Made by a program: the position numbers and the translations under genes
Notes under the pieces: model-generated
Seen by the model: only the letters and a program-made list of their open reading frames with translations
Databases searched by the model: none
Told to the model about the DNA's origin: nothing
DNA from: Phoronis australis
Taxonomy: Eukaryota > Animalia > Phoronida
Reading direction: 5' to 3'
Assembly: GCA_002633005.1 (NCBI GenBank)
Contig: NMRA01001060.1
Location: 1-62,218 of the forward strand
Length of the DNA stretch: 62,218 bases
In this document: piece by piece, positions 12,472 through 58,363 of the stretch
Numbering within the stretch: the first letter of the stretch is position 1
Layout: every line of letters begins with the position of its first letter

Positions 12472-15400
12472 TCAGCTGAATAACATCCACATTGCCAATA
12501 CAATGTTCATTCCAATTAGAATAGTGCCAAACAATAGCACTATGTTATAGATGAGAGCCCTGGATTCCGGGTTGGGGATGGTGGATCGGAACATCATCTC
12601 AATGAAGGCAAGCAGTATCCACTGGCCATCCAAAGCGTAACACGGTACCACATTAAGAAGTGCCAGTGCCCCAGACAATGAGACAAGGTATCTACAACGA
12701 GCTAAGGAAATTCAAGAAAACCGTACAGCTTGAAATAAGCAAATGACATGTATTTCATATTCAACTTTTAACAATGGGGCATTTTTCTGTTGTGGAGTCT
12801 GGGCTGGGTGTCATGTGAATATTGTCTTCTAGACAAGACCACTATATATAAAATTCAAATTTTAGCAAAACATTTAGCGAAATACTTTTAAATTTAATTT
12901 AATTTAAAGAACACAAAAGTTACAACACTAAATGATGACATGAAATTTAATGACCATTTCTGTGATCAGATAATCTACAGCAAATAAGAGTATTTGATTT
13001 TTGAAATGAAGTTGCAAGTGAAATTGAGCTATTTTTAAAGAACAGAGTCACACTAGACTGGGAGACTCCACAATTAGGTTATAACTGCAGAAGACTGCTT
13101 TGAAAACACTGTCAGTCAAAAAATAACTTATCCTTAAGATGACACAATGTTATAGAATTGGTCTCAAATTAACTCTCAATTAGCTCAGATGTCATTTCTG
13201 GGCTGCTCAAGAACGAGATCAATATGCTCGCATGAACCACTCAGTTATTTTACATAAGCCAGAAGTATCTTCACAGAAGACAGGTTCAGAATAGTTTTAA
13301 GCATCTTGCTTGTTGCACGACCATGATGCAACCATAAAAAGGATACTTGCAGAATGTTTCAATCACGTAGGGAAGGTTGAGAGGAACAAGCCTGTTGCTG
13401 GGCACATAACCACTGATAGACACTGAAAATGAAATCCACCCATGATACATCATCAAATATTACTGAAAAGTGATGATGAACGGATATAAAACAGGTTCCC
13501 ATGGCCAGCAAAAGAAATAAAAACATCCGTTTTCCGCTGTCATTTCGGATTGCATTTTGTCAAAAACGAACCAAGCCATTTGCTGTTAAAATGATTTCAA
13601 CTGGTTCCCTTCTCAAATCAGTAATGATTCTGGGCTAAGGAACACCTGAGAGTTGGTTATTGCTGGAGACGATGCTTGGCACATAAAATGACCAGCTTAG
13701 TCAAGCCGACTGAGCAGTCACAAGCAGAGAAAGAGAGACCAGGCTCAAGAGGTCGACAGCATTCACTGCATCCATCATGGTTCGACCAATAACATGATGC
13801 ACCCATCATGAGTAAGAAACAAGTTGAAAGCAGTTTTTTATACGTTAAGAAACAAAAGGCAGGTATAAAACATCTACTGAAATGAGTGTGAAGTGCCTTA
13901 TTTAGAAACAAGCAAAACAGTAAAAACAGCAAAACCATAATGCCGTATTTGCCGTAATAACAGCCCATGTCCCTATAAGAGCCCCCCCCCCCAATGCGTT
14001 TTCAGACTTTAGTAAAATAAGCGTCCAGTCCATGAACGTGTATGTGCGAAAAATGCCTTACCTGCAGTCCTAAAATTCTACAGTAACATCTTCAAGTTAT
14101 CAATAATATCCGACAGTCCTGAAAAAAATCATTGTGCGCAGAATTTGTAGACCACGAGCCTCGCCGTTATGTCGGTATTTAGCCATGACTATACACTTCA
14201 AACTTCCACCATGCCTCAAAACGAACACAGAAGTTCTGCTGATTGCGAGGACCAATGGTCTGGCCTTTCNTGGTAAAATAAGCGCCCAGTCCATGAACAT
14301 GAACGTGCGAAAAATGCCTTACCTACAGTCCTAAAATTCTACAGTAACGTCTTCAAGTTATCAATAATATCTGACAGTCCTAAAAAAATCATTGTGCGCA
14401 GAATTTGTAGACCACGAGCCTCGCCATATGTCGGTATTTAACCATGACTATACACTTCAAACTTCTGCCATGCCTCAAAACGAACACAGAAGTTCTGCTG
14501 ATTGCGAGGACCAATGGTCTGGCCTTTCAGAACAGAAGTAGTGTACTTGTCTACGGGATTGCTTTGTAGATATTTCCCACTTTCAATAGGAATCCAAATT
14601 TTTTTGTAGACCTACACGTGAAAACCGCGAATCGAAGAATAACAAACAGCTTGGCCAGAGTTAAAAGCACGTGGCCAGGAAGCGCGCACTATATACATGA
14701 ACCTGTCATCAAAGGCATTAGTCGGGAACTATCCATTCATGAAACGGGTAGCATAGTATCGGCAAGAAATGAATATTGGCACTAATTTCCGACAGTTTCT
14801 AATACTATAAAAATGTTTGTGTTATTATTAAAATGAATTGTTTGATATACCATAATTGGTGTTTTTAAGCCGAATATTGGATAAAATAACCACTGACAGT
14901 GAATGCTTACACACCCTTACACTGAAAAATAACTGTCAGATAGTCACGTACACATCCAGCCGCACGGCGACTAATATGGCCTCTTACCGAGACAAGCAAA
15001 CGTTTTTAGCACATGAGACTGGCAAGTGCTGATTGAAACACGCCCTGGTTTAGGCCTACTGCTTGTGCAAATTTCTTTAGATACAATGCCCATCTAGTTC
15101 GTTAGATTGCGTGGCTCTGGCCAAAAGACGGTCTGTGCTCTGCCAAATGAACTCTGGTGGCACGCACGCGTTCGCTTACCCACAAACGCAGACAACTTCA
15201 AAACTAACATCAAGTGACAACAACATGTGTGTTCGTCCCGACATTTTTCTCATGTAGATGGCACGATATCAGCACAGATTTGTACTTAAACCTACCGTGA
15301 TCCTGACTCCACGGGAACTTAAAAATCTTAGGGACGCCAAACTTGGAAAAATTAAGGAGGATTTCAGGTAATTTGCTCGAGTTGAAACTGTATTTTTATT

Positions 15401-18400: not shown

Positions 18401-21400
18401 GAAAATAGGTGACCTTTGCACTAATGACATACCCTGGGGGCTCACATAGCCTGCATCATGCAGTGTAATTCTTCAACACCACATCATGACACTACTAGAC
18501 ACAGTCGAGTGATATACGGTGGATCGTTTTTGCCACCAAACTTATTCTTAAAAACATTTGGCAATTTTCAACATACTTTATATTCACATCGTCGCTAAAT
18601 GCTGTGTTTCCAATTAATTTGACCAAACAGTCATAGAGATACGGAATTAGCGTAAGTTCCATTTTTGATGCATGAAAATAAAGTTGTGACAAGAACTCTA
18701 CACCTCAGTTTATGTCTGTGGCCATCTCATGGACAGCATGTTAAAGTCCTTGGAGTAATGAGTTGTGCTAAGTTAGCAAGGGTATCGTTACAACTAACTG
18801 ATGTGAGAAGATGGAAATGGCTTCTGACATGTAATATTATAGTTGATTCAAGGTCAGAACAAATTTTAACCTCACAAGCAGAATTTTGCTTCTAACATTT
18901 GGAACTTGAAACAAAACCAACGGAGTTTGAAGCTGTTCCTTATGTTTAAAACAAGCTAAACAGGTACGAGCAGCCATGCAATTCTCATTTTTAAGTCAAC
19001 AAGCAAAATCGGGATAACCAGGTGCATTTTGCACTCTCACTTGCACTAAAGTCAAACATTGTGATTGCAGTGCAAGTAATCTCTAGTTGGCTACAGGGAC
19101 CTGAAGAAAAAGTACAGAATAAGGGGTACACGCTGCTTCCCAGTTTCAACAGGCAATTTAATAACATAAATCACTGCTCTAGGATATGCAAAACCACTTC
19201 TCAGAGATTTGTAAAAGCGCTCGTGAGAATTTAAAAAGTCAACGTAATAGGCAACCCACCTCGACGACGTCGGTGATGACAACTGAATAGCCGGTGTTGT
19301 AGAACAGTGTCATTAAGCCAGGCATAGAGAACCAAACAGCAAGTGCCAACAGGACAATAATGAAGTTGTGCCAGACACCAGCACAGAAGATGCGTAGTTG
19401 ACGTATAGGGGAGATGATCTGCAGATGCTCGGTACAAAGGTCCACGTAGGCGCCTGGGTAGATGGCCATGACGAACAGACCAAAGCCATTCACGCGCACT
19501 TGCTCTCTAAACAATATAAGGAGCTGTTAATGTTGGCCACAATAGTAGGGAACAGTACTATAAAAAATCACTAGTAAGTCCAATATGCAATAATAGTTTG
19601 TTCGAGAAAATGGCAATTTTCCTTGAGAAACATTTTCATAATTGAAGTTTCAATTAATTTTTAGAAATCATTTAGTTTCAGATACCATTAGCTTTTAAGC
19701 ACAGGAATTAACTGGCTAGGATGTACCATCACCAGTCCATTTTCAAAATGGACTGAGGTACCCTTTGTTGACCATTTAAGTTTTCAGCAATACGTTGCCT
19801 TACGGATATTTTCAAAAGTTGACACAGCATCAGACTAATTTCACACAGATTGGATTGTAGTAACACACCCTATTGGCCATTTTGATTTCTTTCCTGTGTC
19901 CGTTGATTATTGTAGCTTCTCAGATATTGATGAAACTCAACACAAGGGATGTGCCAGCACTATTTGATTATTACAAAAGCTGCAAAATTGTAGATGATTT
20001 CAGGGCTTCTCATTACTGCTTGAGATTGGGCCTGCTAGCTGGCATGTCATGGTGTGCCATTTTATTCGCCGAGCACGATCTCGAGGAATAATAGACTGTT
20101 AGGTCTTTGCAATGTACAGAAATTGCTTGTCACCTAAGTAAAGAACAAATCAAGATCAATTTTATAGTGACGAGTGGTCTAAATGATAAGTTCGCTTCTT
20201 GAACGAAATGCAGGACAAAAGCCCATGAAAACAAAAATATGCTTAAAATAGAGAAATGCCTAACTGACAATAGATGTCGCTACCTGACAGCCGCTACTGC
20301 ATGCCCAACTTCATGAAGAATGCCACAGATAAGAAGTGTGAGAAGGTAGTAGGCTATTTGGCTCATTGGCAGATTCACTCCGGGCATCTGAAACGTGAAG
20401 AAAGACCACTTAATAATTTCAAAAATATACCGAACGTAAAGCAATTGACCTTGTCCTGAAAAACATCAACGACTTAAAAGTCACAATAATCAGCATATGC
20501 CATTGCTCCTAACCAAGAACACTTCATAATTCTCAGTGTACATCACGTATCAAATCATTAAATGTATTTGTATCATGGAAACACACACTGGTGCTCATGT
20601 TAGTTTCCTGCTGAAATGAAGAAACTGTCACGCAAGTACTTAAGGAAATCATCTTAAGAGGCAGAGAAAAATAAATTTGATATGTTACTCCAAAAAAGCA
20701 TTGTTTAGATGTAGCAGTCCCTGATTTTGAGAACCAGACAATTACTGAATAATGTGTCCCCTTATTCAGTGGATGAAACTGGTTCCCAAAATCAGGAACC
20801 GCTAAATCCAACCAGAGCCCTAAAAAACAACAAGCTCCTACAAAATTGAAAAAATAAGATTTTACAAAAACCTTACCACAGGTGTCAGCACTTGTTGTTC
20901 CACCTTTTGTCGCCCAAGGGTATTAATGACCAGCAACGACAGAATAAAGATTGCAAACACCATGGCAACGAGGCCGAAACACACTCCTACAGTGAACCAT
21001 ATTCTCCAGAATTTGGGGTGCCAGTGTCCAATACGACAGAACACGCGATTGACACATGTTGTGTACCACCTTAGCTGCAGCACTGAGATGCTTAAACCAA
21101 ATCTATTCAGCAGCTGCGTATATATCCTGGATGACCATTTCTGGTGCTGAAATAAAAACAAATTCTTAGCACATTTTGAAACAAACAAAAAAAGAATCAA
21201 GTTAGAAGAATCATGGACCGTGAACTTGGAATTGCATATTCATTAGGGCAATCAGGTGAAATTTTTTGTTCAGTGTAAAGAATTTTTGGCCTCACGATCA
21301 CCCATTTTCTAATTTACCGTAACTTGTGTCAAAGAATCAGAAGAATGTGCGATAGTTGAAAAGGGTTGGTTAAAATTTACTTTATTTTATTCACATGTAA

Positions 21401-25300: not shown

Positions 25301-28300
25301 TTTATGGATTGGTCATTTTGCATACTACATTAATGTGTTTATCTCCCTTGTAGATCTATAAATGTGACAACCCCCAGTGCCCTCGACCTGCCTGTTACCG
25401 CTCGTTTGGCAGCAATAAGGAAGATAACTTCCCCTGTGATCGGGCCGCCTGCTCTGGCAGGTTCAGACTGCAGAGGTAAGGATAACTCTTGTATTTCTAT
25501 TAGTTTTTTGATAGTGGTTCCTTACAAAATGCTTGACAACATTGTTTCACGTGTTACAGAGGTGTTTGCACATATTTTATGCTTTGGGATGTGCCTGGAA
25601 AGCTTTTCTAAACTGGTCAGTTCTGCTCAAATGTATTGTGAGCATGTTTGGGAATGCCGCTATCGGTAAAACTTAATTGTGATTTAGGCCAAGGGTCCAA
25701 AGTAGACTTACAAAACTGGTGTAAATTCTAATACCAAAAACTTTGTTTTACGTGTTGTTTTATGTGTGTTTTGCCAGTTTAACAGTGCAGTCAGTCTTTG
25801 GTGTTCCTTGGCCCATTGATCGATTCATTCATTCACTTATTCGTTGTGGGAAACCTTGCGGTTGTCTATCTTAATCACGAATTCAGGCTAAAAGAACGCC
25901 AATCATTCAATTTAGAATTTCACAGTTTTTACCATTCTTGTTAGAATTCAATGGCAGATCCAACACATGCCTAGTTTTTGCTTAAACTTAATTTGTCCTT
26001 ATCTTTGCAGGCACGTGTCATTTGTCGATTGCCCCGGTCACGACATTCTTATGGCCACCATGTTGAATGGTGCGGCTGTCATGGACGCAGCATTGTTGCT
26101 AATAGGTGCGTGGGTTGTCGCCTCACTTTCTGAAAAGAAATTGGTTCCGCTCTTACCTCCTGTACTGCTTAAGTAAATAAAATTCAGCCTTTGGCCATAG
26201 TTTTAGTAATGAAGAAATTCACTGTAAACCGTGCCATTGTACTTTATGGGCTAAAAATCATCTTCAAGTGAGTACAGGTAAAATGCCAAGGGTTCAGGTA
26301 GAAAGTTGGTGAATACTTAATAGTTAGCATTCTGTTGCGCCACGGAAATGATGAAATTGAGTGGTCACAATTTCTTTCAGCATCAGGTATTTGAATAGTT
26401 CCGGACTCAGATTCTGGTTGTTCCTGAGGCAAGAAAGCATGATCTGCTTGTCTGTGCAATCTTTTAAATTTTCCTTTACTTGATGTTTTTAATTGAAATT
26501 GAAGTTTGTTATTCAAATGTTGGTCATTCCAGTTATAACGAACACACTGATCACTCATTTAGTGCCACCTGTAGCATTTTTTCTTACAGCAAATTTTAAT
26601 ATGAGCAATATGGTAATGTTTCCTCATTCAAGCAAGAATAAAAGCCAAAATCGAATTTTAGTATTTTTAAGACGCTCACTGTATTGCCAAAATTGTTCAA
26701 AATTCCGTCATGTGTTGATGACACCCCTATTATATAAAGTTTTCAAATAATCGAGTAAGTTTGTCTTTTTGTTAGTCTTCTTGAAAATTTTGACGAAACA
26801 AAATTTCACTGAAGCTAAGGAGCAAGCTACTGGATGGCACTATTACATGCCTTCAACATATATTACATGTCAACAAATTGAAAAGTCTGTCCATTTTTTA
26901 AAAGGAGTTTTGGCACAGGTAGTTCGTGCATTGGCTCAATCGTGAGGCCTGCATATGTCTGATACACTGCAAAACGTCAGATCGCCTGCACTCTTTTTTA
27001 TCTTGTATTCTAATTTGAAGAAACCTTACCATACACTATCTGAGTGCGCACTGCTTCCAGTGTTTGTTACTGCTGTGTCACTATTGACGGTCTGTTTGAC
27101 TGCATCCTGTTCTGTCTGCAGCTGGCAATGAGTCGTGCCCTCAGCCGCAGACCTCGGAGCATCTGGCCGCTATCGAGATAATGAAGTTGAAACACATTCT
27201 GATCCTGCAGAATAAAATCGATCTCGTCAAGGAGAGTCAGGCTAAAGATCAGTATGAGCAGATCCTCAAGTTTGTACAGGGTGAGTTGAAGTGTTGAGAC
27301 TTTGATTTTAATTTGGACATGGTTCATGAATACGGTGGTGAAGACTATTATTTAGTCTTACTAAGAAAAATTAACAACTTTACATCAGTTGCAACATTTT
27401 CGCTCTTCTAAATAATGCAGCGTCACATTTGCAACAAGAGGACTGGACATGCGGCTTTTGATAAAATGGACGTCTGCATTTGAGATAAGTGAAGATAAAG
27501 TTCCTTTCTGACTGATGTCTTCAGCACATCTTGATTTGTACCCAACTTCCATAAAATTGTTTTCCAGGCACGGTGGCAGAGGGCGCCCCGGTCATACCCA
27601 TCTCTGCACAGCTAAAGTATAATATTGAAGTCATCTGTGAATACATATGCAAGAAGATTCCCATACCCATACGTGATTTCACATCCGAACCACGCCTCAT
27701 TGGTAAGATAACGGCAAAACTCTTATCACGTTTTAAGCTGTGTTTGTGATGGCTCTGGTTAAAGTTTCCCAGAGCTTGTAGAGAGGGAAAATAAGAAAAA
27801 GGGTGGCTCTATGCAAGAAGTGTGCTTTTACAAACCTTAGTGTATATAAGCCTGCTGTCATGATCAGTGATTAAGTGGTTGCAGTCATTGCTCTTCAACT
27901 GTTGAAGAGTTCTCTCCTGGGTACAAGCAGCGTACTGAAGCCGTCTTTGCTTATCGTTACGTCACATGTAGTTGGTATTTAAATTTTGTTGTTGAAGACA
28001 GTGCAAACGTTATGTCAAATGGGATTCCGAAATTGCTGTTAATGTATTTGCAATAATATCTGTATCATTTACAATTTAGTTTTTATTTGCCCTTTGTTTT
28101 GTGCGGCAGTTCGATTAGGATGATGATATTGTTTAATTTGATTTTCTTGTTAGTCTATTTTTTCGCCCTCTTCCATTGAGTTTCTATGCTTCTATTTACT
28201 CGACCTTTTCCATCACTGATTTTACCAACCTTGTAGTAAGCCATCTCTGTTTTCTTATCACCCTAAAGTAATCCGATCATTTGATGTCAACAAGCCTGGT

Positions 28301-32913: not shown

Positions 32914-42790
<9,877 letters not shown>

Positions 42791-48490: not shown

Positions 48491-48895
48491 GAAGCCCACT
48501 CACAGGACCAGGTTGCTTGTATTTTCAAAGTACAATTACCCCGCTGTGTTGCAAAGTGAGTTTATTGATATCGTTTTGTAGAAAGAGCTTTAATCTTTCT
48601 GATGAAATCATCTATTTTTTTAATGAAACTTAACCCTGAAATTAGTCTGGGGAAGTAGACCAAAAACCGCGGTTTGGGTAGTTGTCCCTTCCTGGTTATC
48701 TCTTCCTGATAGTACTACTTTGTAAGTATCTAATAATATAACATAGTACTACTTTGTAAGTATCTAATAATATAACATAGTACTACTTTGTAAGTATCTA
48801 ATAATATAACATAGTCTTTGTAAATATTGTAAATGTCTAAATACAACTAATGCTTCCCATCTACTAACCACAAGCTAATGTTCAATGTTGATTTG
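48460..48895. repeat. Direct repeat copy 1, containing a 34-bp VNTR x3
   Basis: Near-identical to 50945-51489; VNTR unit atagtactactttgtaagtatctaataatataac at 48709, 48743 and 48777. Confidence 0.9.
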
Positions 48896-50944: not shown

Positions 50945-51489
50945 GGATGATAGCAGTCCGTGTGAGTGGGCATACATGTAGGAAGCCCACTCACAGGACC
51001 AGGTTACTTGTATTTTCAAAGTACAATTACCCCGCTGTTTAATGTTGCAAAGTGAGTTTATTGATATCATTTTGTAGAAAAAGCTTTACTCTTTCTGATG
51101 AAATCATCTATATTTTTAATGAAACCTAACCCCTGAAATTAGTCTGGGAAGTAGACCAAAAACCGCGGTTTGGCTAGTTGTCCCTTCCTGATTATCTCTT
51201 CCTGATAGCACTACTTTGTAAGTATCCAATAATATAACATAGTTACTTTGTAAGTATCTAATAATACAGCATAGTACTACTTTGTAAGTATCTAATAATA
51301 TAGCATAGTACTACTTTGTAAGTATCTAATAATATAGCATAGTACTACTTTGTAAGTATCTAATAATATAACATAGTTACTTTGTAAGTATCTAATAATA
51401 TAACATAGTCTTTGTAAATATTGTAAATATCTAAATACAACTAATGCTTCCCATCTACTAACCACAAGCTAATGTTCAATGTTTATTTG
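50945..51489. repeat. Direct repeat copy 2, with the 34-bp VNTR expanded to ~6 units
   Basis: Same sequence as 48460-48895 with small indels; VNTR at ~51205-51405. Confidence 0.9.
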
Positions 51490-51728
51490 AGTATACATAA
51501 ACACAATCAACAACATTGCTATCACACGCTCAATGATGGCGTGGTACGTTATTTCCAGTATTGAGATTATTACCTTCATTAATCAAGACCCATCTCTATT
51601 CTAGCTTCGAATCAAAAAGTTGATTACAATCACCATAAACAAACCCTGGCACTACCAAATTGTAATACAACAATTTTGTGTCATATTTGTGGCTTTAGTA
51701 TATAGAATGCTACCACTGACTAAATGAG

Positions 51729-51989
51729 TCAAAGCCGTGATCTGGCCAAAAACTTCAGTCCGTCACTAAGAATGCGTTCCAGATCTGACAAAGAAAAAGA
51801 AGGCAAGAATTGTTCAACAAAAGTCATCAGTTCAGCAACAGAATTCACATTACGTTTTTTGTAGGCTGTTTCTCCCATAGCTTCATACAATATTATTCCC
51901 TTGCTGGTTTCTTTAAGTACGTAAGACAATCCCGGAGGATGAATGGCTGCTAACGCTGAGGTGTGCGCTGAACTACAACTTCTGTACAA
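51729..51989 (-). pseudogene. Detached C-terminal third of the arylamine N-acetyltransferase gene
   Basis: 86 stop-free codons LYRSCSSAHTSALAAIHP...VNSVAELMTFVEQFLPSFSLSDLERILSDGLKFLARSRL* starting exactly at the piggyBac TIR; the length complements the 5' half to ~294 aa. Confidence 0.7.
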
Positions 51990-54900
51990 CCCCAGAAGGC
52001 CCAGATATTCAAAAATTTTCTTAAAAATTTTTTTGAGTTCAATAATACTTGAAGATAGATCACTAGATGATGAGAAAAGCGTTAAAAGAAATTTTGCACT
52101 CAATGACCTCGTTTTATACAATGTTGCAATTTTGCAACAGTGGGAGCTGATGGTAGCAAATGTCCTATATTTAGCTAGACATTTGTTTGTGAAAATCACT
52201 ACAAAACAACATCAGATGGAACACTTTATTTATGACAATTACCCTAATTATCAGCAAAAACTAAGTTTGGTGTATTAGTAAACATTTTGTTTGGTGCATA
52301 TGAAATTTCACCCTTGTCTCATTTCTGTAATGCAGTCAACACGTGTTCCAAGACCTCAGTCCTCGGTTGCCCCTACGGGCCAGTAATTCACATTGCTGCA
52401 TCTAAACATACAGTTTAGTTGTGGTAACTAAATATGATAGAGACGGAAACAGTTTTTTTGTGAAGTAAAGCACAGATGAAGTTCACATTTCTCGCATGCG
52501 ATTCCAGTAAAGCCGTCAGCACAGTACTTGCAACGACCTCTTTTCGCAACTTTTATGGGCCAGTGACCAACACCATCGCATCTAACCTCACGTGGAAGTG
52601 CTGCCTTTCTTGCCTTCTTTGGTAGTGCAGGTTTTGGCAATTTAACCTCATCCAACGATGGCCGGCCTCGCTTGGGAGCTTTGCACATGATCAGTGAAGT
52701 TGCAATCTGGGCCTGGAACATTCTCAGCTTCATGAGGTCCCCTTCGGGCTTTTGAAGAGCACGAAATTCCTTTTGGTACAATAGCCAAGCATTTACGACA
52801 GCAACGGATATAGTGTGCCAAAATAGGTACAGGTACCACCTTCTGGACGTGATGCCGTACTTGTACTTTGCTGACAGAGCATCCAACAGGTCGACACCAC
52901 CCATAAATTTATTGTACTGACTGACACAAAATGGCCTTGGGATTTGGACATGTGACTTAGAGCTCTTGTCCCATCTTCTGACAATATCAGTAGGATTAGC
53001 ACCAACAAAAGATGAAATGACAGTTACTGGCTTGTTGTCATACCAGTGCACAACGCAGATGTTTTCGTTGACCTCGACTTTTTCTTCATAGGAACCTCTT
53101 CCTTGTTTTTTCATTTCCTTTTCACTTTTGAGGCTGCACCCTTGGATACGATTGGTTCGTATAGTACCCAGGTACTGTATTCCACGTTCATGTAGCTTGT
53201 TAACCAGCTCGATACCAGAAAAGAAGTTGTCCGCAATTATTTTGTAGTTCTTGTGAGATGGCAAAGTTGCTGACAAATTCAAAACAACATCCGCACACAG
53301 GCCCAGCTCAGATTTAAACGTGCGCTGACTGCCTTGGTAAACTTCAAAATCATACAGAAGTCCACTGACTGATGTTCTAGCCCAGATTTTGAAGCCCCAA
53401 GGATGTGGTTTGCCACGGACATATTGTTTTATACCACTAAACTTCCCATTAAATTTCACCATCATCTCATCTATTGAATTGTGCTCGTCAGGAGTAAGTT
53501 TGAGGCAGTTTTCGCGAAACCTGTCCAACCACGGTTTCACCTTCCACAACTTGTTTTTCTTTTCTTCATCAGTTACTAACAGGTTATTTGCAAAATGGAT
53601 TGACGAAAGAATGTCCTGGAACTTGTTCCGTGACATTACATCAGCAACGGGTGGATATCTGTTTTCTGTCTCCCAATAGGTTCGATTGCCTGGCATTTTA
53701 ACAATTCCCATGCGTAAATACATCCCTATAGCCTGTTCCATCTCTTTTGTAGATATATTACTAGGAACACCCTTTTTCTGCATGGAGTAAATGTTGCTAC
53801 TTTCTGTCAAAGCATCAATCATTTCAACAGTTATGAACTGTTGGAAGTATCTATACGGCGATAGAACCTCTCCATCAAGGGGTGCATCATGACTTGAACC
53901 TGAGAATGTAACATCACCAGGTTCGAACGTCTTGTTCCGCCACTTGAAAAGCTGCTTTTTGGTTGGTTGTTCACTAGTGCTGGGAGCAGGCTGGTTAATA
54001 AAATGGGCTAGTGGTTCATCGTCACTATCAGAAGTTTCATCATCGCCACCAAGTTGCTGGGGAATGAAGTCATCTTCATCATCATCATCATCACTAACTA
54101 AGCCCTCCAATTCACTCTCATCTCCATCTAACAAATGTAACACATCTCCCAACTCGAGGTTTTTCCTTGTCATTTTGAATCTGAAAATAAACCAGGAAAT
54201 CGATTAGTGTTGCATTACGTGCATTTCAAAAGAAAAATCTTCAGGAGTAGCGAGTAATAAACAATTATATTTGCTCGTAAAGACGCTGATTGAATGTGAT
54301 ATCACAGAGACAACGTACGTGACTTGGCAACAAAAAAAAAACAAAAGGTCTACACAAAAATTAAAATCTGCTAAGTCAAACTTACATACAAGTCGATGGA
54401 AAGCAGCATAAAAACTAACACAGTCGTTGAGTTTCTACTGACACACAAAGTTTATTAACTCTAGCTACAATATATATAGTGAACAGAAATTTGTGTGGGT
54501 TGTGACTGCAAAACAAAAACAATGTTGAAATATCCGGTGATCTCATCTACATCATAAACATGAATGAAGTCTGGACAGCTGCTTGCTGTATACACTTTCA
54601 CTATGAGTGGACATTGGTTACTGACATAGTAAACAAAAACACAAGGATGTCCTGGAATAGTTATATAATAGAAATTGTTTTGCTGGGACAGTTGTACGTC
54701 AGAGGAAATGATTAAACTTGCACTTAATTAACTACACCAAAATTCAAGGCATTTAACTGGGCATGAACCCAACAGTGTCAGACAGAAGATTAAACACAAG
54801 TCTGTTGTCATGGTGATGACAGAGCCCGGTGTTGCAATTATGCAACATGGCTTTTCATGACTAAGGCACTTAGAAAACAAAACATTATTCAACATAAAGT

Positions 54901-55212
54901 TCATACCATCAAATAATATAGTCTTTAATGGTTTGAATACATTACATTGAAAAATTAAATTTACCTGGACTGTGTAGTGAATGACTTTGCCTTTTGTCCA
55001 TATGACAGCTTGCAACATGGCGGCAGACATCTTGAATTTCTAATTCAAATAGTTTGTTCATTTGTCAAGAGAGGTCCCTCATACTGTAGCATTACTGCAA
55101 CAATGGGCCTTGGAGGGTACACAATCAATTATATGAACACAGAATAATTGGGGGGTTAACTATAGATTATCAAAAGTGGTGTTGCAATATTACAACAAGG
55201 GGCCTTCCAGGG
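51990..55212 (-). mobile_element. Full-length piggyBac transposon (3223 bp)
   Basis: 13-bp TIRs CCCCAGAAGGCCC (51990-52002) and GGGCCTTCCAGGG (55200-55212), 11/13 match; subterminal palindromes; intact transposase. Confidence 0.8.
52428..54173 (-). CDS. piggyBac transposase (PGBD2/PGBD3-like), 581 aa, intact
   Basis: Acidic N-terminus, MSRNKF, catalytic SIDEMM / IIADNFF / MGGVDLLD, KPHPWGFKIW, WYDNKPV, and C-terminal Cys-rich RCKYC..CEKCELHLC..CFRLYH. Confidence 0.95.
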   Translation of the reverse strand: MTRKNLELGDVLHLLDGDESELEGLVSDDDDDEDDFIPQQLGGDDETSDSDDEPLAHFINQPAPSTSEQPTKKQLFKWRNKTFEPGDVTFSGSSHDAPLDGEVLSPYRYFQQFITVEMIDALTESSNIYSMQKKGVPSNISTKEMEQAIGMYLRMGIVKMPGNRTYWETENRYPPVADVMSRNKFQDILSSIHFANNLLVTDEEKKNKLWKVKPWLDRFRENCLKLTPDEHNSIDEMMVKFNGKFSGIKQYVRGKPHPWGFKIWARTSVSGLLYDFEVYQGSQRTFKSELGLCADVVLNLSATLPSHKNYKIIADNFFSGIELVNKLHERGIQYLGTIRTNRIQGCSLKSEKEMKKQGRGSYEEKVEVNENICVVHWYDNKPVTVISSFVGANPTDIVRRWDKSSKSHVQIPRPFCVSQYNKFMGGVDLLDALSAKYKYGITSRRWYLYLFWHTISVAVVNAWLLYQKEFRALQKPEGDLMKLRMFQAQIATSLIMCKAPKRGRPSLDEVKLPKPALPKKARKAALPREVRCDGVGHWPIKVAKRGRCKYCADGFTGIACEKCELHLCFTSQKNCFRLYHI

Positions 55213-55840
55213 CATTAAGCCGTGGAACTATCTCATCAAGTGAAACTGCATCTAGATTGAAAGTATAAAAATCTATCCACTGGGCCTTTTCAACTGTAAT
55301 AAATGGATCCGTTTCACTTATGAACTGTCGTCGAACATAATGATCACCCGCTTTGGCAAATTTGCACAACATATTTTTATGCTGAAAACATAGGGATTCC
55401 ACCTCAAAATCCAAAGGGAATGCATCAAGAGCTGGATGTGCAATTCCTGCATCCACCAAAAAGGTGTCTCCCTCCTCATGTAGATCCTTAACAATAACAA
55501 TCACATGTAGTGGATACGTGTTGATTATTAAGCGCGCTAAACTCAAGTAGGTATGGAAACCTAAACCTGCCAGCAGCGCAGACATGAAGGTATGCAGCTC
55601 ATAACAAAAACCGCCTCGTCGGCTCATAAGTTTCTCTTTGATATCATCCCAACTTGGAGTACGTCTCAGATCCTTAGGAATCATTAAAAGATTAAAACTG
55701 GTATACGGGATGTGGTGACTAAATGCTGTAATAATACGTTTCAAAAAAGCAGCCTTGTGCAGTTTCTTGCAGTCCTCAAGATTAACATCAATAACCTCTA
55801 GGAAACATCCGATTTCCTCTGGAGACAGCTGCATCGCCAT
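55190..55840 (-). CDS. Arylamine N-acetyltransferase, intronless, truncated after codon 209 by the piggyBac insertion
   Basis: HIPYTSFNL, RRGGFCYELH (catalytic Cys), LHVIVIV (His), FLVDAG (Asp). The last residues ALEGPLL* are encoded by the transposon end. Confidence 0.85.
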   Translation of the reverse strand: MAMQLSPEEIGCFLEVIDVNLEDCKKLHKAAFLKRIITAFSHHIPYTSFNLLMIPKDLRRTPSWDDIKEKLMSRRGGFCYELHTFMSALLAGLGFHTYLSLARLIINTYPLHVIVIVKDLHEEGDTFLVDAGIAHPALDAFPLDFEVESLCFQHKNMLCKFAKAGDHYVRRQFISETDPFITVEKAQWIDFYTFNLDAVSLDEIVPRLNALEGPLL

Positions 55841-57050
55841 TTTGAAGTTGTCTTAGTGTAGTGGGCAAGTGCGCACAAAGCTGAATAGACCTAGCTGCGA
55901 AGCCAGATGACACAAATGATCTCACATAAACCGTTTCTGTGTGACCATTGGGTCTTACTTTTGTAACAGGGGAGCCCTGAATACGGTTATATAATTGAGT
56001 TACATAAGGTCTCTGGTGGACAAGCTGTACATTACTAGTGGATTATTTTGGTGTCAATGCTATCGATGCCACTGGCTTTACTACAGTTCAGATTTTTTAT
56101 TTGTTCTCGGACGTCGACTTGAATGTCTTGAAACTTAAATGATATTCCCTCGTGTATCTTGGGCGGGAGCTCAATAGTTGACATACTGAATTTTCAGCAA
56201 GTTTTTGGCCAATGCCAGCTGAGTAAAAAAGTCATTAAATGCATTTGATATTTTATTTTTGTCCGAAACAACATCGTTAAAAATTAGAAATTCATTTGCT
56301 ACAGACTTGCCCTTGTTAGGTAAAATTGATTTTATGATTCTCCAGAGTTTTTCCGTTAGATATGTTTTAATTAATAACTTAATTGGTCGTAATACTCAGC
56401 CTTGGTCCGTTTAAGAGCATTGTTTACCTTATTTCTAGCTTTCTTAACGATACCCCTGTCAGATGAATTTCGAGTACGCTGAGCTATTCCCTTCATGTAG
56501 TCTCTCTAGCGAGAGAGAGCTATGAGGTTATCATTAAAGACAAGCAAGGATTAGCATGACAGCTGTTGCCATTAAGCCGGGTTCATGAGAGTCAAACTGC
56601 CCCGACGGGGAAGCACTAAGACAACCCGGAACAACATCGAACCTAGTTGTTGCTTACCCTAGAAGTCAATGACGCTGTTGCCATCCAGCCAGCGTCTCAT
56701 CTCCGAGTCCACAAGAAGAAGAACACCTGCAGCTTCCAACCAGGTCCTGCCGCTCGATCCACGCCCACACCAACCCAGTGGCGGATCTAGGATATCACAA
56801 GGGGGGGCCAACATGTTGTCTGAAAAAATTTGTGCAAAGCACAATTAAATGCTCATGGCACCGAATGGAGGGAGGTAGGGAGGGGGGTTCGCCCCCCTCC
56901 AGCGCAGGAAATTTTTTCTGTTTTTTCCTCTAAAAGCAAACATTTTCCTTGATTCTTGAAGTATTATCCAAGAAAAAAGGCAAAGAAAAAGAAAAGTAAA
57001 AAGAAAAAAAAAACACGGCGAACGTGTCAAACATGAAAAACTATACTTTT

Positions 57051-57750: not shown

Positions 57751-58363
57751 NNNNNNNNNNNNNNNNNNNNNNNNNNNNNNNNNNNNNNNNNNNNNNNNNN
57801 NNNNNNNNNNNNNNNNNNNNNNNNNNNNNNNNNNNNNNNNNNNNNNNNNNNNNNNNNNNNNNNNNNNNNNNNNNNNNNNNNNNNNNNNNNNNNNNNNNNN
57901 NNNNNNNNNNNNNNNNNNNNNNNNNNNNNNNNNNNNNNNNNNNNNNNNNNNNNNNNNNNNNNNNNNNNNNNNNNNNNNNNNNNNNNNNNNNNNNNNNNNN
58001 NNNNNNNNNNNNNNNNNNNNNNNNNNNNNNNNNNNNNNNNNNNNNNNNNNNNNNNNNNNNNNNNNNNNNNNNNNNNNNNNNNNNNNNNNNNNNNNNNNNN
58101 NNNNNNNNNNNNNNNNNNNNNNNNNNNNNNNNNNNNNNNNNNNNNNNNNNNNNNNNNNNNNNNNNNNNNNNNNNNNNNNNNNNNNNNNNNNNNNNNNNNN
58201 NNNNNNNNNNNNNNNNNNNNNNNNNNNNNNNNNNNNNNNNNNNNNNNNNNNNNNNNNNNNNNNNNNNNNNNNNNNNNNNNNNNNNNNNNNNNNNNNNNNN
58301 NNNNNNNNNNNNNNNNNNNNNNNNNNNNNNNNNNNNNNNNNNNNNNNNNNNNNNNNNNNNNNN
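57751..58363. other. Assembly gap (N run)
   Basis: Run of n; ORFs spanning it are artefacts. Confidence 1.

Follow-up and report, generated by a model that had tools for sequence, protein, structure and literature searches.

A full-length piggyBac-like transposon appears to have replaced 12 bp of the coding sequence of an arylamine N-acetyltransferase (NAT) gene without duplicating its target, likely through aberrant integration beside a TTAA, leaving a null allele beyond repair by excision; we give this reading a probability of roughly 0.7. The gene and the element lie in Phoronis australis (Phoronida) assembly GCA_002633005.1, contig NMRA01001060.1, of which we analyzed positions 1 to 62,218 of the forward strand (here, the window). 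Neither a second NAT nor a second transposase was found in these 62,218 nt. The public DNA contigs used for comparison came from four runs of one sample in one study.

From its sequence, the split gene is an intronless member of the arylamine N-acetyltransferase family. Its 5′ part (55213-55840, minus strand; 628 nt, or 209 codons plus 1 nt) carries the catalytic triad C79, H112, and D130, as originally predicted, at columns that hold C in 97, H in 97, and D in 75 of 99 homologues. The 3′ part (51729-51988, minus strand; 2 nt, 85 codons, and the stop) encodes the C-terminal domain. Against the Pfam model Acetyltransf_2 (PF00797), the 5′ half scored 52.5 bits, above the cut-off of 22.8, whereas the 3′ half by itself had no Pfam match at E values up to 10. 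The 3′ peptide nevertheless aligned, as anticipated, with the C-terminal region of a NAT profile at 7.4 bits, a score that none of 500 shuffled sequences reached (best shuffle, 6.6 bits). The original prediction had this frame starting exactly at the terminal inverted repeat (TIR); the stretch between 51989 and its stop at 51729 (261 nt) is indeed open, but the open frame spans 160 codons in all, 74 of which fall within the element. In the other direction, the NAT frame of the window enters the element for 7 codons before a stop at 55190, which predicts a truncated protein of 216 aa. An exhaustive search recovered 328 NAT relatives at E values up to 0.001, and a word-index search with the NAT half returned 252 candidates, none of them significant. 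The best homologues are only 33-37% identical, and the closest named ones are uncharacterised proteins of a crinoid, a starfish, and a horseshoe crab.

The element itself occupies 51990-55212 on the minus strand (3,223 bp), in the same orientation as the NAT gene. Its ends at 55212 and 51990 are formed by the 13-bp TIRs that had been proposed, although these are imperfect: the 5′ TIR (55200-55212, minus strand) and the 3′ TIR (51990-52002, plus strand) match at 11 of 13 positions. Both start with CCC and agree with the definition of piggyBac-like elements given in the accessible part of PMC5381638 (two TIRs, two UTRs, and a transposase, with TIRs of 12-19 bp starting C[C/A/T][C/A/T]). A direct copy of the 5′ TIR with a palindrome unit lies subterminally at 55085-55117 (minus strand), and related palindromes are found at 55180-55197, 54830-54847, and 52122-52139. 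A consensus scan predicted an intron in the 5′ noncoding region of the element (54181-54964, minus strand), with a donor consensus at 54964 and an acceptor consensus whose end, at 54181, is 7 nt upstream of the transposase ATG. The element has a poly(A) signal at 52230. In the other sample, its sequence showed no differences over 224 nt and 352 nt and four over 538 nt.

The transposase open reading frame (52428-54173, minus strand) is open, as are both NAT halves, in line with the original prediction. It encodes a 581-aa protein that matches PF13843 (E value, 2e-74), has its DDD motifs in SIDEMM, IADNFF, and GGVDLLD, and keeps 126 of the 131 columns conserved among 25 homologues. At residue 171 the window copy has N, where 24 of the 25 homologues and the copy in the other sample have T. 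The C-terminal Cys-rich domain is present at residues 548-580 (CxxC, CxxC, HLC, and CF..YH) and scored 19.6 bits against zf-Tnp_2, below the cut-off of 24. The best relative is 55% identical across 89% of the protein. Judged by these sequence features, the protein is an intact candidate transposase.

Both termini coincide with the ends of related elements and of diverged copies in the public contigs, the latter also stopping at 55212. The related elements (43-53% protein identity) are about 3.0-3.5 kb long and have the same 13-bp CCC TIRs, 11-13 of 13 positions being alike. Five distinct related insertions could be located at both ends; TTAA was present at the 3′ end in all five and at both ends in three. 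Since the CCC TIRs of these relatives directly abut TTAA, the TIR register assigned here is correct and the window copy is the exception. Its flanks on the gene strand, AATG and TTGT, are alike at none of four positions and neither is TTAA; comparison of both flanks thus revealed no target-site duplication, which refutes the 4-nt target copy proposed earlier. With such flanks, we file the element as piggyBac-like and the insertion as noncanonical. A TTAA does occur in the NAT coding sequence at 55215-55218, 2 nt beyond the 5′ end of the element, but it is not duplicated. At the other junction a single base, 51989 (T on the gene strand, which is the minus strand), differs from both the TIR and the empty allele; it may be left over from a TTAA overhang or reflect a synonymous difference between alleles.

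Public contigs join the two flanks, as the original prediction had suggested an empty allele would. In contigs from two of the four runs, 55213 is joined to 51988, with 3,224 nt skipped and 12 letters in between. With these 12 bases, which the window lacks, the frame is continuous over 900 nt and encodes 299 aa, the complete length of a three-domain NAT, compared with a median of 300 aa in the homologues, and the protein covers positions 1-286 of the 299 in the profile. The intact gene is therefore not the predicted 885 nt and 294 aa. When the joined protein was aligned with the profile, a five-residue spacer fitted at the break free of gaps. The anchor distance with this spacer is 35 (34-36 in 68 of 99 homologues) versus 30 for the 885-nt join, a value found in 4 of 99, and the missing stretch includes a column occupied by Y or F in 85 of 99. 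With zero to eight X as spacer, the joined protein scored 196 to 203 bits, with the best at two; these scores did not discriminate spacer length, for which we relied on the anchor distance and on the empty allele. Two other accounts of the scar, a 2-bp TG duplication as the target site and a separate 12-bp indel unrelated to the insertion, were rejected since the ends of the deletion fall on the ends of the element.

Because no target was duplicated and 12 bp were replaced, excision cannot restore the gene, and the reversion by precise excision envisaged in the original prediction is not supported. If the element is cut out at its TIRs, the remaining 889 nt are frameshifted and terminate after 214 aa; repair to 885 or 888 nt keeps the frame, but with 4-5 residues missing. 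Seamless piggyBac repair relies on a duplicated TTAA (PMC7351741, accessible part), and reported non-TTAA targets retain a central TA (PMC3849761, accessible part). AATG has no central TA, so that strand transfer at this 5′ end, if clean, would not be of the usual kind, a point against the main reading. We propose that integration began with the transposase acting at the TTAA of 55215-55218, that the 5′ end of the element was then joined 2 nt off register, and that joining of its 3′ end did not keep pace (uncoupled integration). Host repair would have taken out 11-13 bp of target, so that no more than 1-2 nt of the overhang from the TTAA survived.

A different order of events, which we consider unlikely, is a first insertion with a short duplication, followed by a failed excision at the 3′ end in which end joining removed the duplicate and adjoining NAT bases. 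The 3′ junction retains 1-2 TTAA letters and can be derived from a TTAA and its flank by a deletion at a 1-nt microhomology, two of the five related insertions have non-TTAA flanks on one side, and deletions adjoining inserted piggyBac have been observed in fission yeast (PMC3064801, accessible part). Moreover, the private change at conserved residue 171 means that the copy may have been in place for a while. This history nevertheless leaves the 5′ junction, with its two target bases between TTAA and TIR, unexplained, and still requires that the element initially inserted at a non-TTAA site. Its outcome would be the same unrepairable null.

It is distinctly improbable that the joined contig, instead of being an allele, stems from a closely similar paralogue or from a sibling species that carries the same label, in which case the insertion may be fixed at its locus. 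NAT paralogues are present in the public sample, the contigs of that sample differ from the window at 5-6 sites in the NAT 3′ half, and at position 51946 every contig listed has a letter other than that of the window. However, those paralogues are 86-91% alike to the window, whereas the contigs at the empty joint are ∼98% alike to it, with near-identical noncoding DNA flanking both sides. The seven NAT coding differences listed between the window and the public sample (40 of 757 rows) all change an amino acid; the commoner residue is in the window at four and in the sample at two, with one tie. We dropped these differences as a signal of decay or insertion age, given their mixed polarity and the 40 of 757 rows behind them.

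We give still less credence to a piggyBac lineage whose transposase no longer targets TTAA strictly and whose insertions, as a rule, delete a short piece of target rather than duplicate it and would thereby cause irreversible knock-outs. The five departures of the transposase from the 131 conserved columns would fit such a lineage; its relatives at 43-53% identity, which use TTAA, count against it. An assembly or gap-filling error in the position of the element is highly improbable. The element-NAT junctions are bridged by none of the 32 contig pieces listed (out of 1,992) and are known from the window alone, a scaffold with a gap of 613 N at 57751-58363, but they sit exactly at the independently defined termini, no N lies within or near the element, and the element ends share no sequence with the gene that could mislead an assembler. 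Finally, a canonical insertion with a 4-nt duplication and precise excision to a 294-aa enzyme is hardly tenable: although 885 nt keeps the frame and piggyBac can excise from non-TTAA flanks (PMC7351741, accessible part), making a 294-295-aa in-frame repair product possible, the duplicated 4-mer is absent, the natural empty allele of 900 nt refutes the model as stated, and a product that lacks five residues, at a conserved column, would count as a deletion mutant rather than a revertant.

Under aberrant integration beside the TTAA, the filled allele would yield the 216-aa protein without the inter-domain helix and the C-terminal domain, and its transcripts would terminate at the element poly(A) signal. 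The NAT gene is likely dead for good. The insertion is likely young and polymorphic, as originally suggested, because the empty allele exists under one species label; it would still be segregating in the species, and the paralogues probably buffer the loss of the broken copy.

The element resembles structural group 4 of the piggyBac-like elements (TIRs plus direct and subterminal repeats, as described in the accessible part of PMC5381638) and the elements of the "PGBD3-like" transposases of fish and marine invertebrates in its 13-bp CCC TIRs, its palindromic subterminal repeats, its length near 3 kb, and its single open reading frame (about 590 aa) that encodes the DDD triad and a Cys-rich tail, but differs in that the window copy has neither TTAA nor any duplication and has replaced target bases. 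The same source attributes non-TTAA flanks in 5 of 157 elements to mutation; its supplement S2 gives element flanks and may bear on how rare such insertions are. With Trichoplusia ni piggyBac (accessible parts of PMC7351741 and PMC3064801), the element shares its predicted chemistry, hairpin ends and a DDD active site, but seamless reversion there requires matching 4-nt overhangs, whereas those of the window copy would be unrelated, with 12 bp lost. Pokey of Daphnia also has imperfect TIRs, nonautonomous relatives, and about 10% non-TTAA sites, yet those keep the central TA and are duplicated, neither of which holds here (PMC3849761, accessible part). As in the CSB-PGBD3 exon trap, the element lies in host-gene orientation with a predicted splice acceptor just ahead of the transposase ATG; unlike CSB-PGBD3, it lies within a coding exon, and the NAT frame ends 22 nt into the element, upstream of the first donor consensus. 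No fusion protein of the CSB-PGBD3 type is thus predicted for NAT and transposase from a donor scan that covered the element. The gene shares with the PF00797 family the Cys-His-Asp triad, a single coding exon, a length of about 300 aa, and several paralogues, and differs in that the allele in the window is broken by a DNA transposon. Vertebrate NATs show birth-and-death evolution with pseudogenes (PMC3601968, accessible part).

A literature search at listing level, with most subscription papers outside its scope, returned no report of piggyBac within a NAT gene and no natural piggyBac insertion with a target deletion. The textbook rule for piggyBac is "TTAA in, no scar out." Taken together, this is mostly an ordinary insertion with an unusual scar, and transposon knock-outs are expected in redundant gene families of the detoxification type. 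The scar runs contrary to that rule, as a natural piggyBac insertion with a known empty site in which target was deleted and none duplicated. The candidate transposase, at most 55% identical to the relatives within the set searched, could serve in trials as a tool. A lack of duplication, if it were the rule in this family, would be important to models of how piggyBac recognizes its target.

Frame reading and repeat comparison bore out the coordinates on which the original prediction of a piggyBac insertion in an intronless arylamine N-acetyltransferase (NAT) gene was based. On the minus strand, the NAT frame opens at 55840 and runs up to a terminal inverted repeat (TIR) that starts with CCC at 55212, the transposase frame of 581 aa spans 54173 to 52428 (minus), the second repeat (3′ TIR) occupies 51990-52002, and the 3′ NAT frame is open for 261 nt on the minus strand from 51989 to a stop at 51729. 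The two repeats are identical at 11 of 13 positions. The 4-nt target copy that had also been proposed is absent, because the four bases beyond each repeat on the gene strand (AATG and TTGT) do not repeat one another, nor is TTAA present in either place; close to the element ends, TTAA is found only once, at 55215-55218, separated from the 5′ end by 2 nt.

The 5′ half of the host gene scored 52.5 bits against Acetyltransf_2 (cut-off 22.8) and matched solved bacterial NATs (5 sequences, E up to 0.01). An exhaustive search with NAT returned 328 relatives, the best 33-37% identical; three of the nine top matches were named clusters, uncharacterised proteins of a crinoid, a starfish and a horseshoe crab. 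Together with spliced exons at other places in the window, these names indicate animal DNA, probably that of a marine invertebrate. A NAT profile was built from 99 of the 150 listed matches (270-335 aa; 51 were left out for length), in which the columns of the C79-H112-D130 triad hold C in 97, H in 97 and D in 75 homologues. The alignment of 51729-51989 to the C-terminal part of NAT, on which the split-gene reading depended, was found at profile positions 223-287 with 7.4 bits, a score that none of 500 shuffles reached (the highest gave 6.6), and scores below zero were obtained for the four further frames reported; the match is weak yet specific. The species' DNA contains two or more paralogues of NAT that are 86-91% alike (contig records on 55240-55844), none of them inside the window; they differ from the window NAT by 24 in 269 nt and 65 in 468 nt.

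We compared the window from 51000 to 56700 with public DNA contigs of one sample (four runs, a single study), in which 53-63% of the sampled 5′-half words were present. An empty allele joining both flanks was found in contigs from two of the four runs, which connect 51988 to 55213, leaving out 3,224 nt and carrying 12 letters at the joint, GGAAGAATTTCT (plus strand); the joint's shorter side measured 57 and 83 letters. Read in the direction of the gene, the 12 bases keep the frame and encode residues E-K-F-F-L across the break, so that the intact gene is 628 + 12 + 260 = 900 nt and 299 aa (homologue median 300), and not the 885 nt and 294 aa expected earlier. The five-residue spacer aligns to the NAT profile without a gap, and the third of the lost positions is a column where 85 of 99 homologues have Y or F. 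With the spacer, the distance between two anchors flanking the break is 35 (34-36 in 68 of 99 homologues), compared to 30 with the earlier join (4 of 99). Since the empty allele, the spacer alignment and this distance agree, we conclude that the element replaces 12 bp of NAT rather than merely parting the gene; a range of 11-13 bp allows for different ways of assigning the T at 51989 and a 1-nt microhomology. Every contig listed at 51946 differs from the window, which suggests that the sample contigs come from another individual. No contig bridging a filled junction was seen among 32 pieces listed of 1,992 from the one sample, and contigs lose rare variants, so that the sample may or may not carry the filled allele.

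The transposase belongs to the piggyBac family (PF13843, E 2e-74) and has the full set of three catalytic motifs as well as the Cys-rich tail; its closest relatives are at most 55% identical and annotated PGBD3-like. The element would work like a piggyBac and, by the working definition in PMC5381638, is piggyBac-like; in that source, flanks other than TTAA were found in 5 of 157 elements. Unlike canonical piggyBac, the insertion shows no TTAA duplication and was therefore filed as non-canonical. We fetched 52 related loci and scanned 37 (15 short or weak ones were excluded); both ends were found in eight, which by their flanks represent five distinct insertions of 2.2-3.5 kb with 13-bp CCC TIRs alike at 11-13 of 13 positions. 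TTAA lies directly at the 3′ end in 5/5 and at both ends in 3/5. Judged by these TIRs and flanks, imperfect TIRs are normal for such elements, the register of the copy in the window is right, and having no TTAA at either end is exceptional. In the related loci L008 and L005/L006, the non-TTAA flank is on the 5′ side only; L008 has a TTAA 2 nt outside its 5′ TIR, a geometry matching that of the window.

At its 5′ side the element joins the target cleanly, although 2 nt away from a TTAA; at the 3′ side 1-2 TTAA letters are retained, with the target resuming 12 bp further on. According to PMC7351741, Trichoplusia ni piggyBac carries a 4-nt overhang at each end and integrates at TTAA; matching overhangs give seamless repair, and TTAA flanks are not required for excision. 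The simplest account of both junctions would be one aberrant, uncoupled event beside the TTAA, in which the two element ends were joined out of step and host repair then trimmed the NAT target. Li et al. 2013 are reported to have found that repair resolves mismatched overhangs at non-TTAA sites. The main rival is that a later failed excision made the scar, and from one copy it cannot be told apart from aberrant insertion. The site is not a non-TTAA miss of the common type, since known examples retain the central TA (PMC3849761). A literature search, judged from listings, found no matching report.

Whether the scar arose by aberrant insertion or by failed excision, excision cannot restore NAT, contrary to the reversion originally envisaged, because removal at the TIRs is computed to give 889 nt with a stop after 214 aa, and products of 885 or 888 nt, although in frame, lack 4-5 residues. 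NAT could be restored only through recombination with an intact allele. The filled allele is likely null, as its predicted 216-aa product lacks the C-terminal domain, a part of NATs that gives the active-site pocket its shape (PMC3601968). No CSB-PGBD3-type fusion is predicted, because the NAT frame ends ahead of the first of the donor consensus sites in the element.

An open transposase frame, element sequence that is nearly identical in the sample and an empty allele carried under one species label all suggest that the insertion is young. Stretches of 224 and 352 nt in the sample match the element without a difference, one of 287 nt has 1 difference and one of 538 nt has 4; the sample also holds element versions 85-97% alike, one terminating exactly at 55212. 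Of 131 columns that are conserved in 90% or more of 25 homologues, the transposase retains 126. Among its five departures, N171 occurs in the window's copy alone (the sample's near-identical sequence encodes T), and with this change at a conserved residue the "very recent" and "active" of the original prediction are no more than tentative. Within the predicted intron of the element, 54250-54630 has a contig depth ~10-fold that of the remainder of the element, and a diverged copy carries 399 other letters in place of 54206-54886; this part probably hosts, or shares sequence with, a high-copy repeat.

Around the gene, a 34-bp unit is common to two arrays 2.4 kb apart downstream of NAT (48709-48815 and 51205-51409), contig depth is very high at 51000-51381, and a high-copy repeat at 55966-56350 begins ~125 nt upstream of the NAT start codon. 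A scan of 150 of 205 frames identified spliced exons belonging to neighbouring genes for a peptidase M50, which we take to be site-2 protease-like, a translation-factor GTPase, presumably eIF2-gamma-like, and a Got1/Sft2 protein, at 12475-12711 (minus), 19242-19526 (minus), 25916-26173 (plus) and 35617-35916 (minus).

All seven listed NAT coding differences between window and sample (from 40 of 757 rows) change a residue, with mixed polarity; selection on this redundant gene may be relaxed or diversifying. A transposon knock-out in a small, fast-evolving enzyme family is ordinary, and the scar is a modest curiosity.
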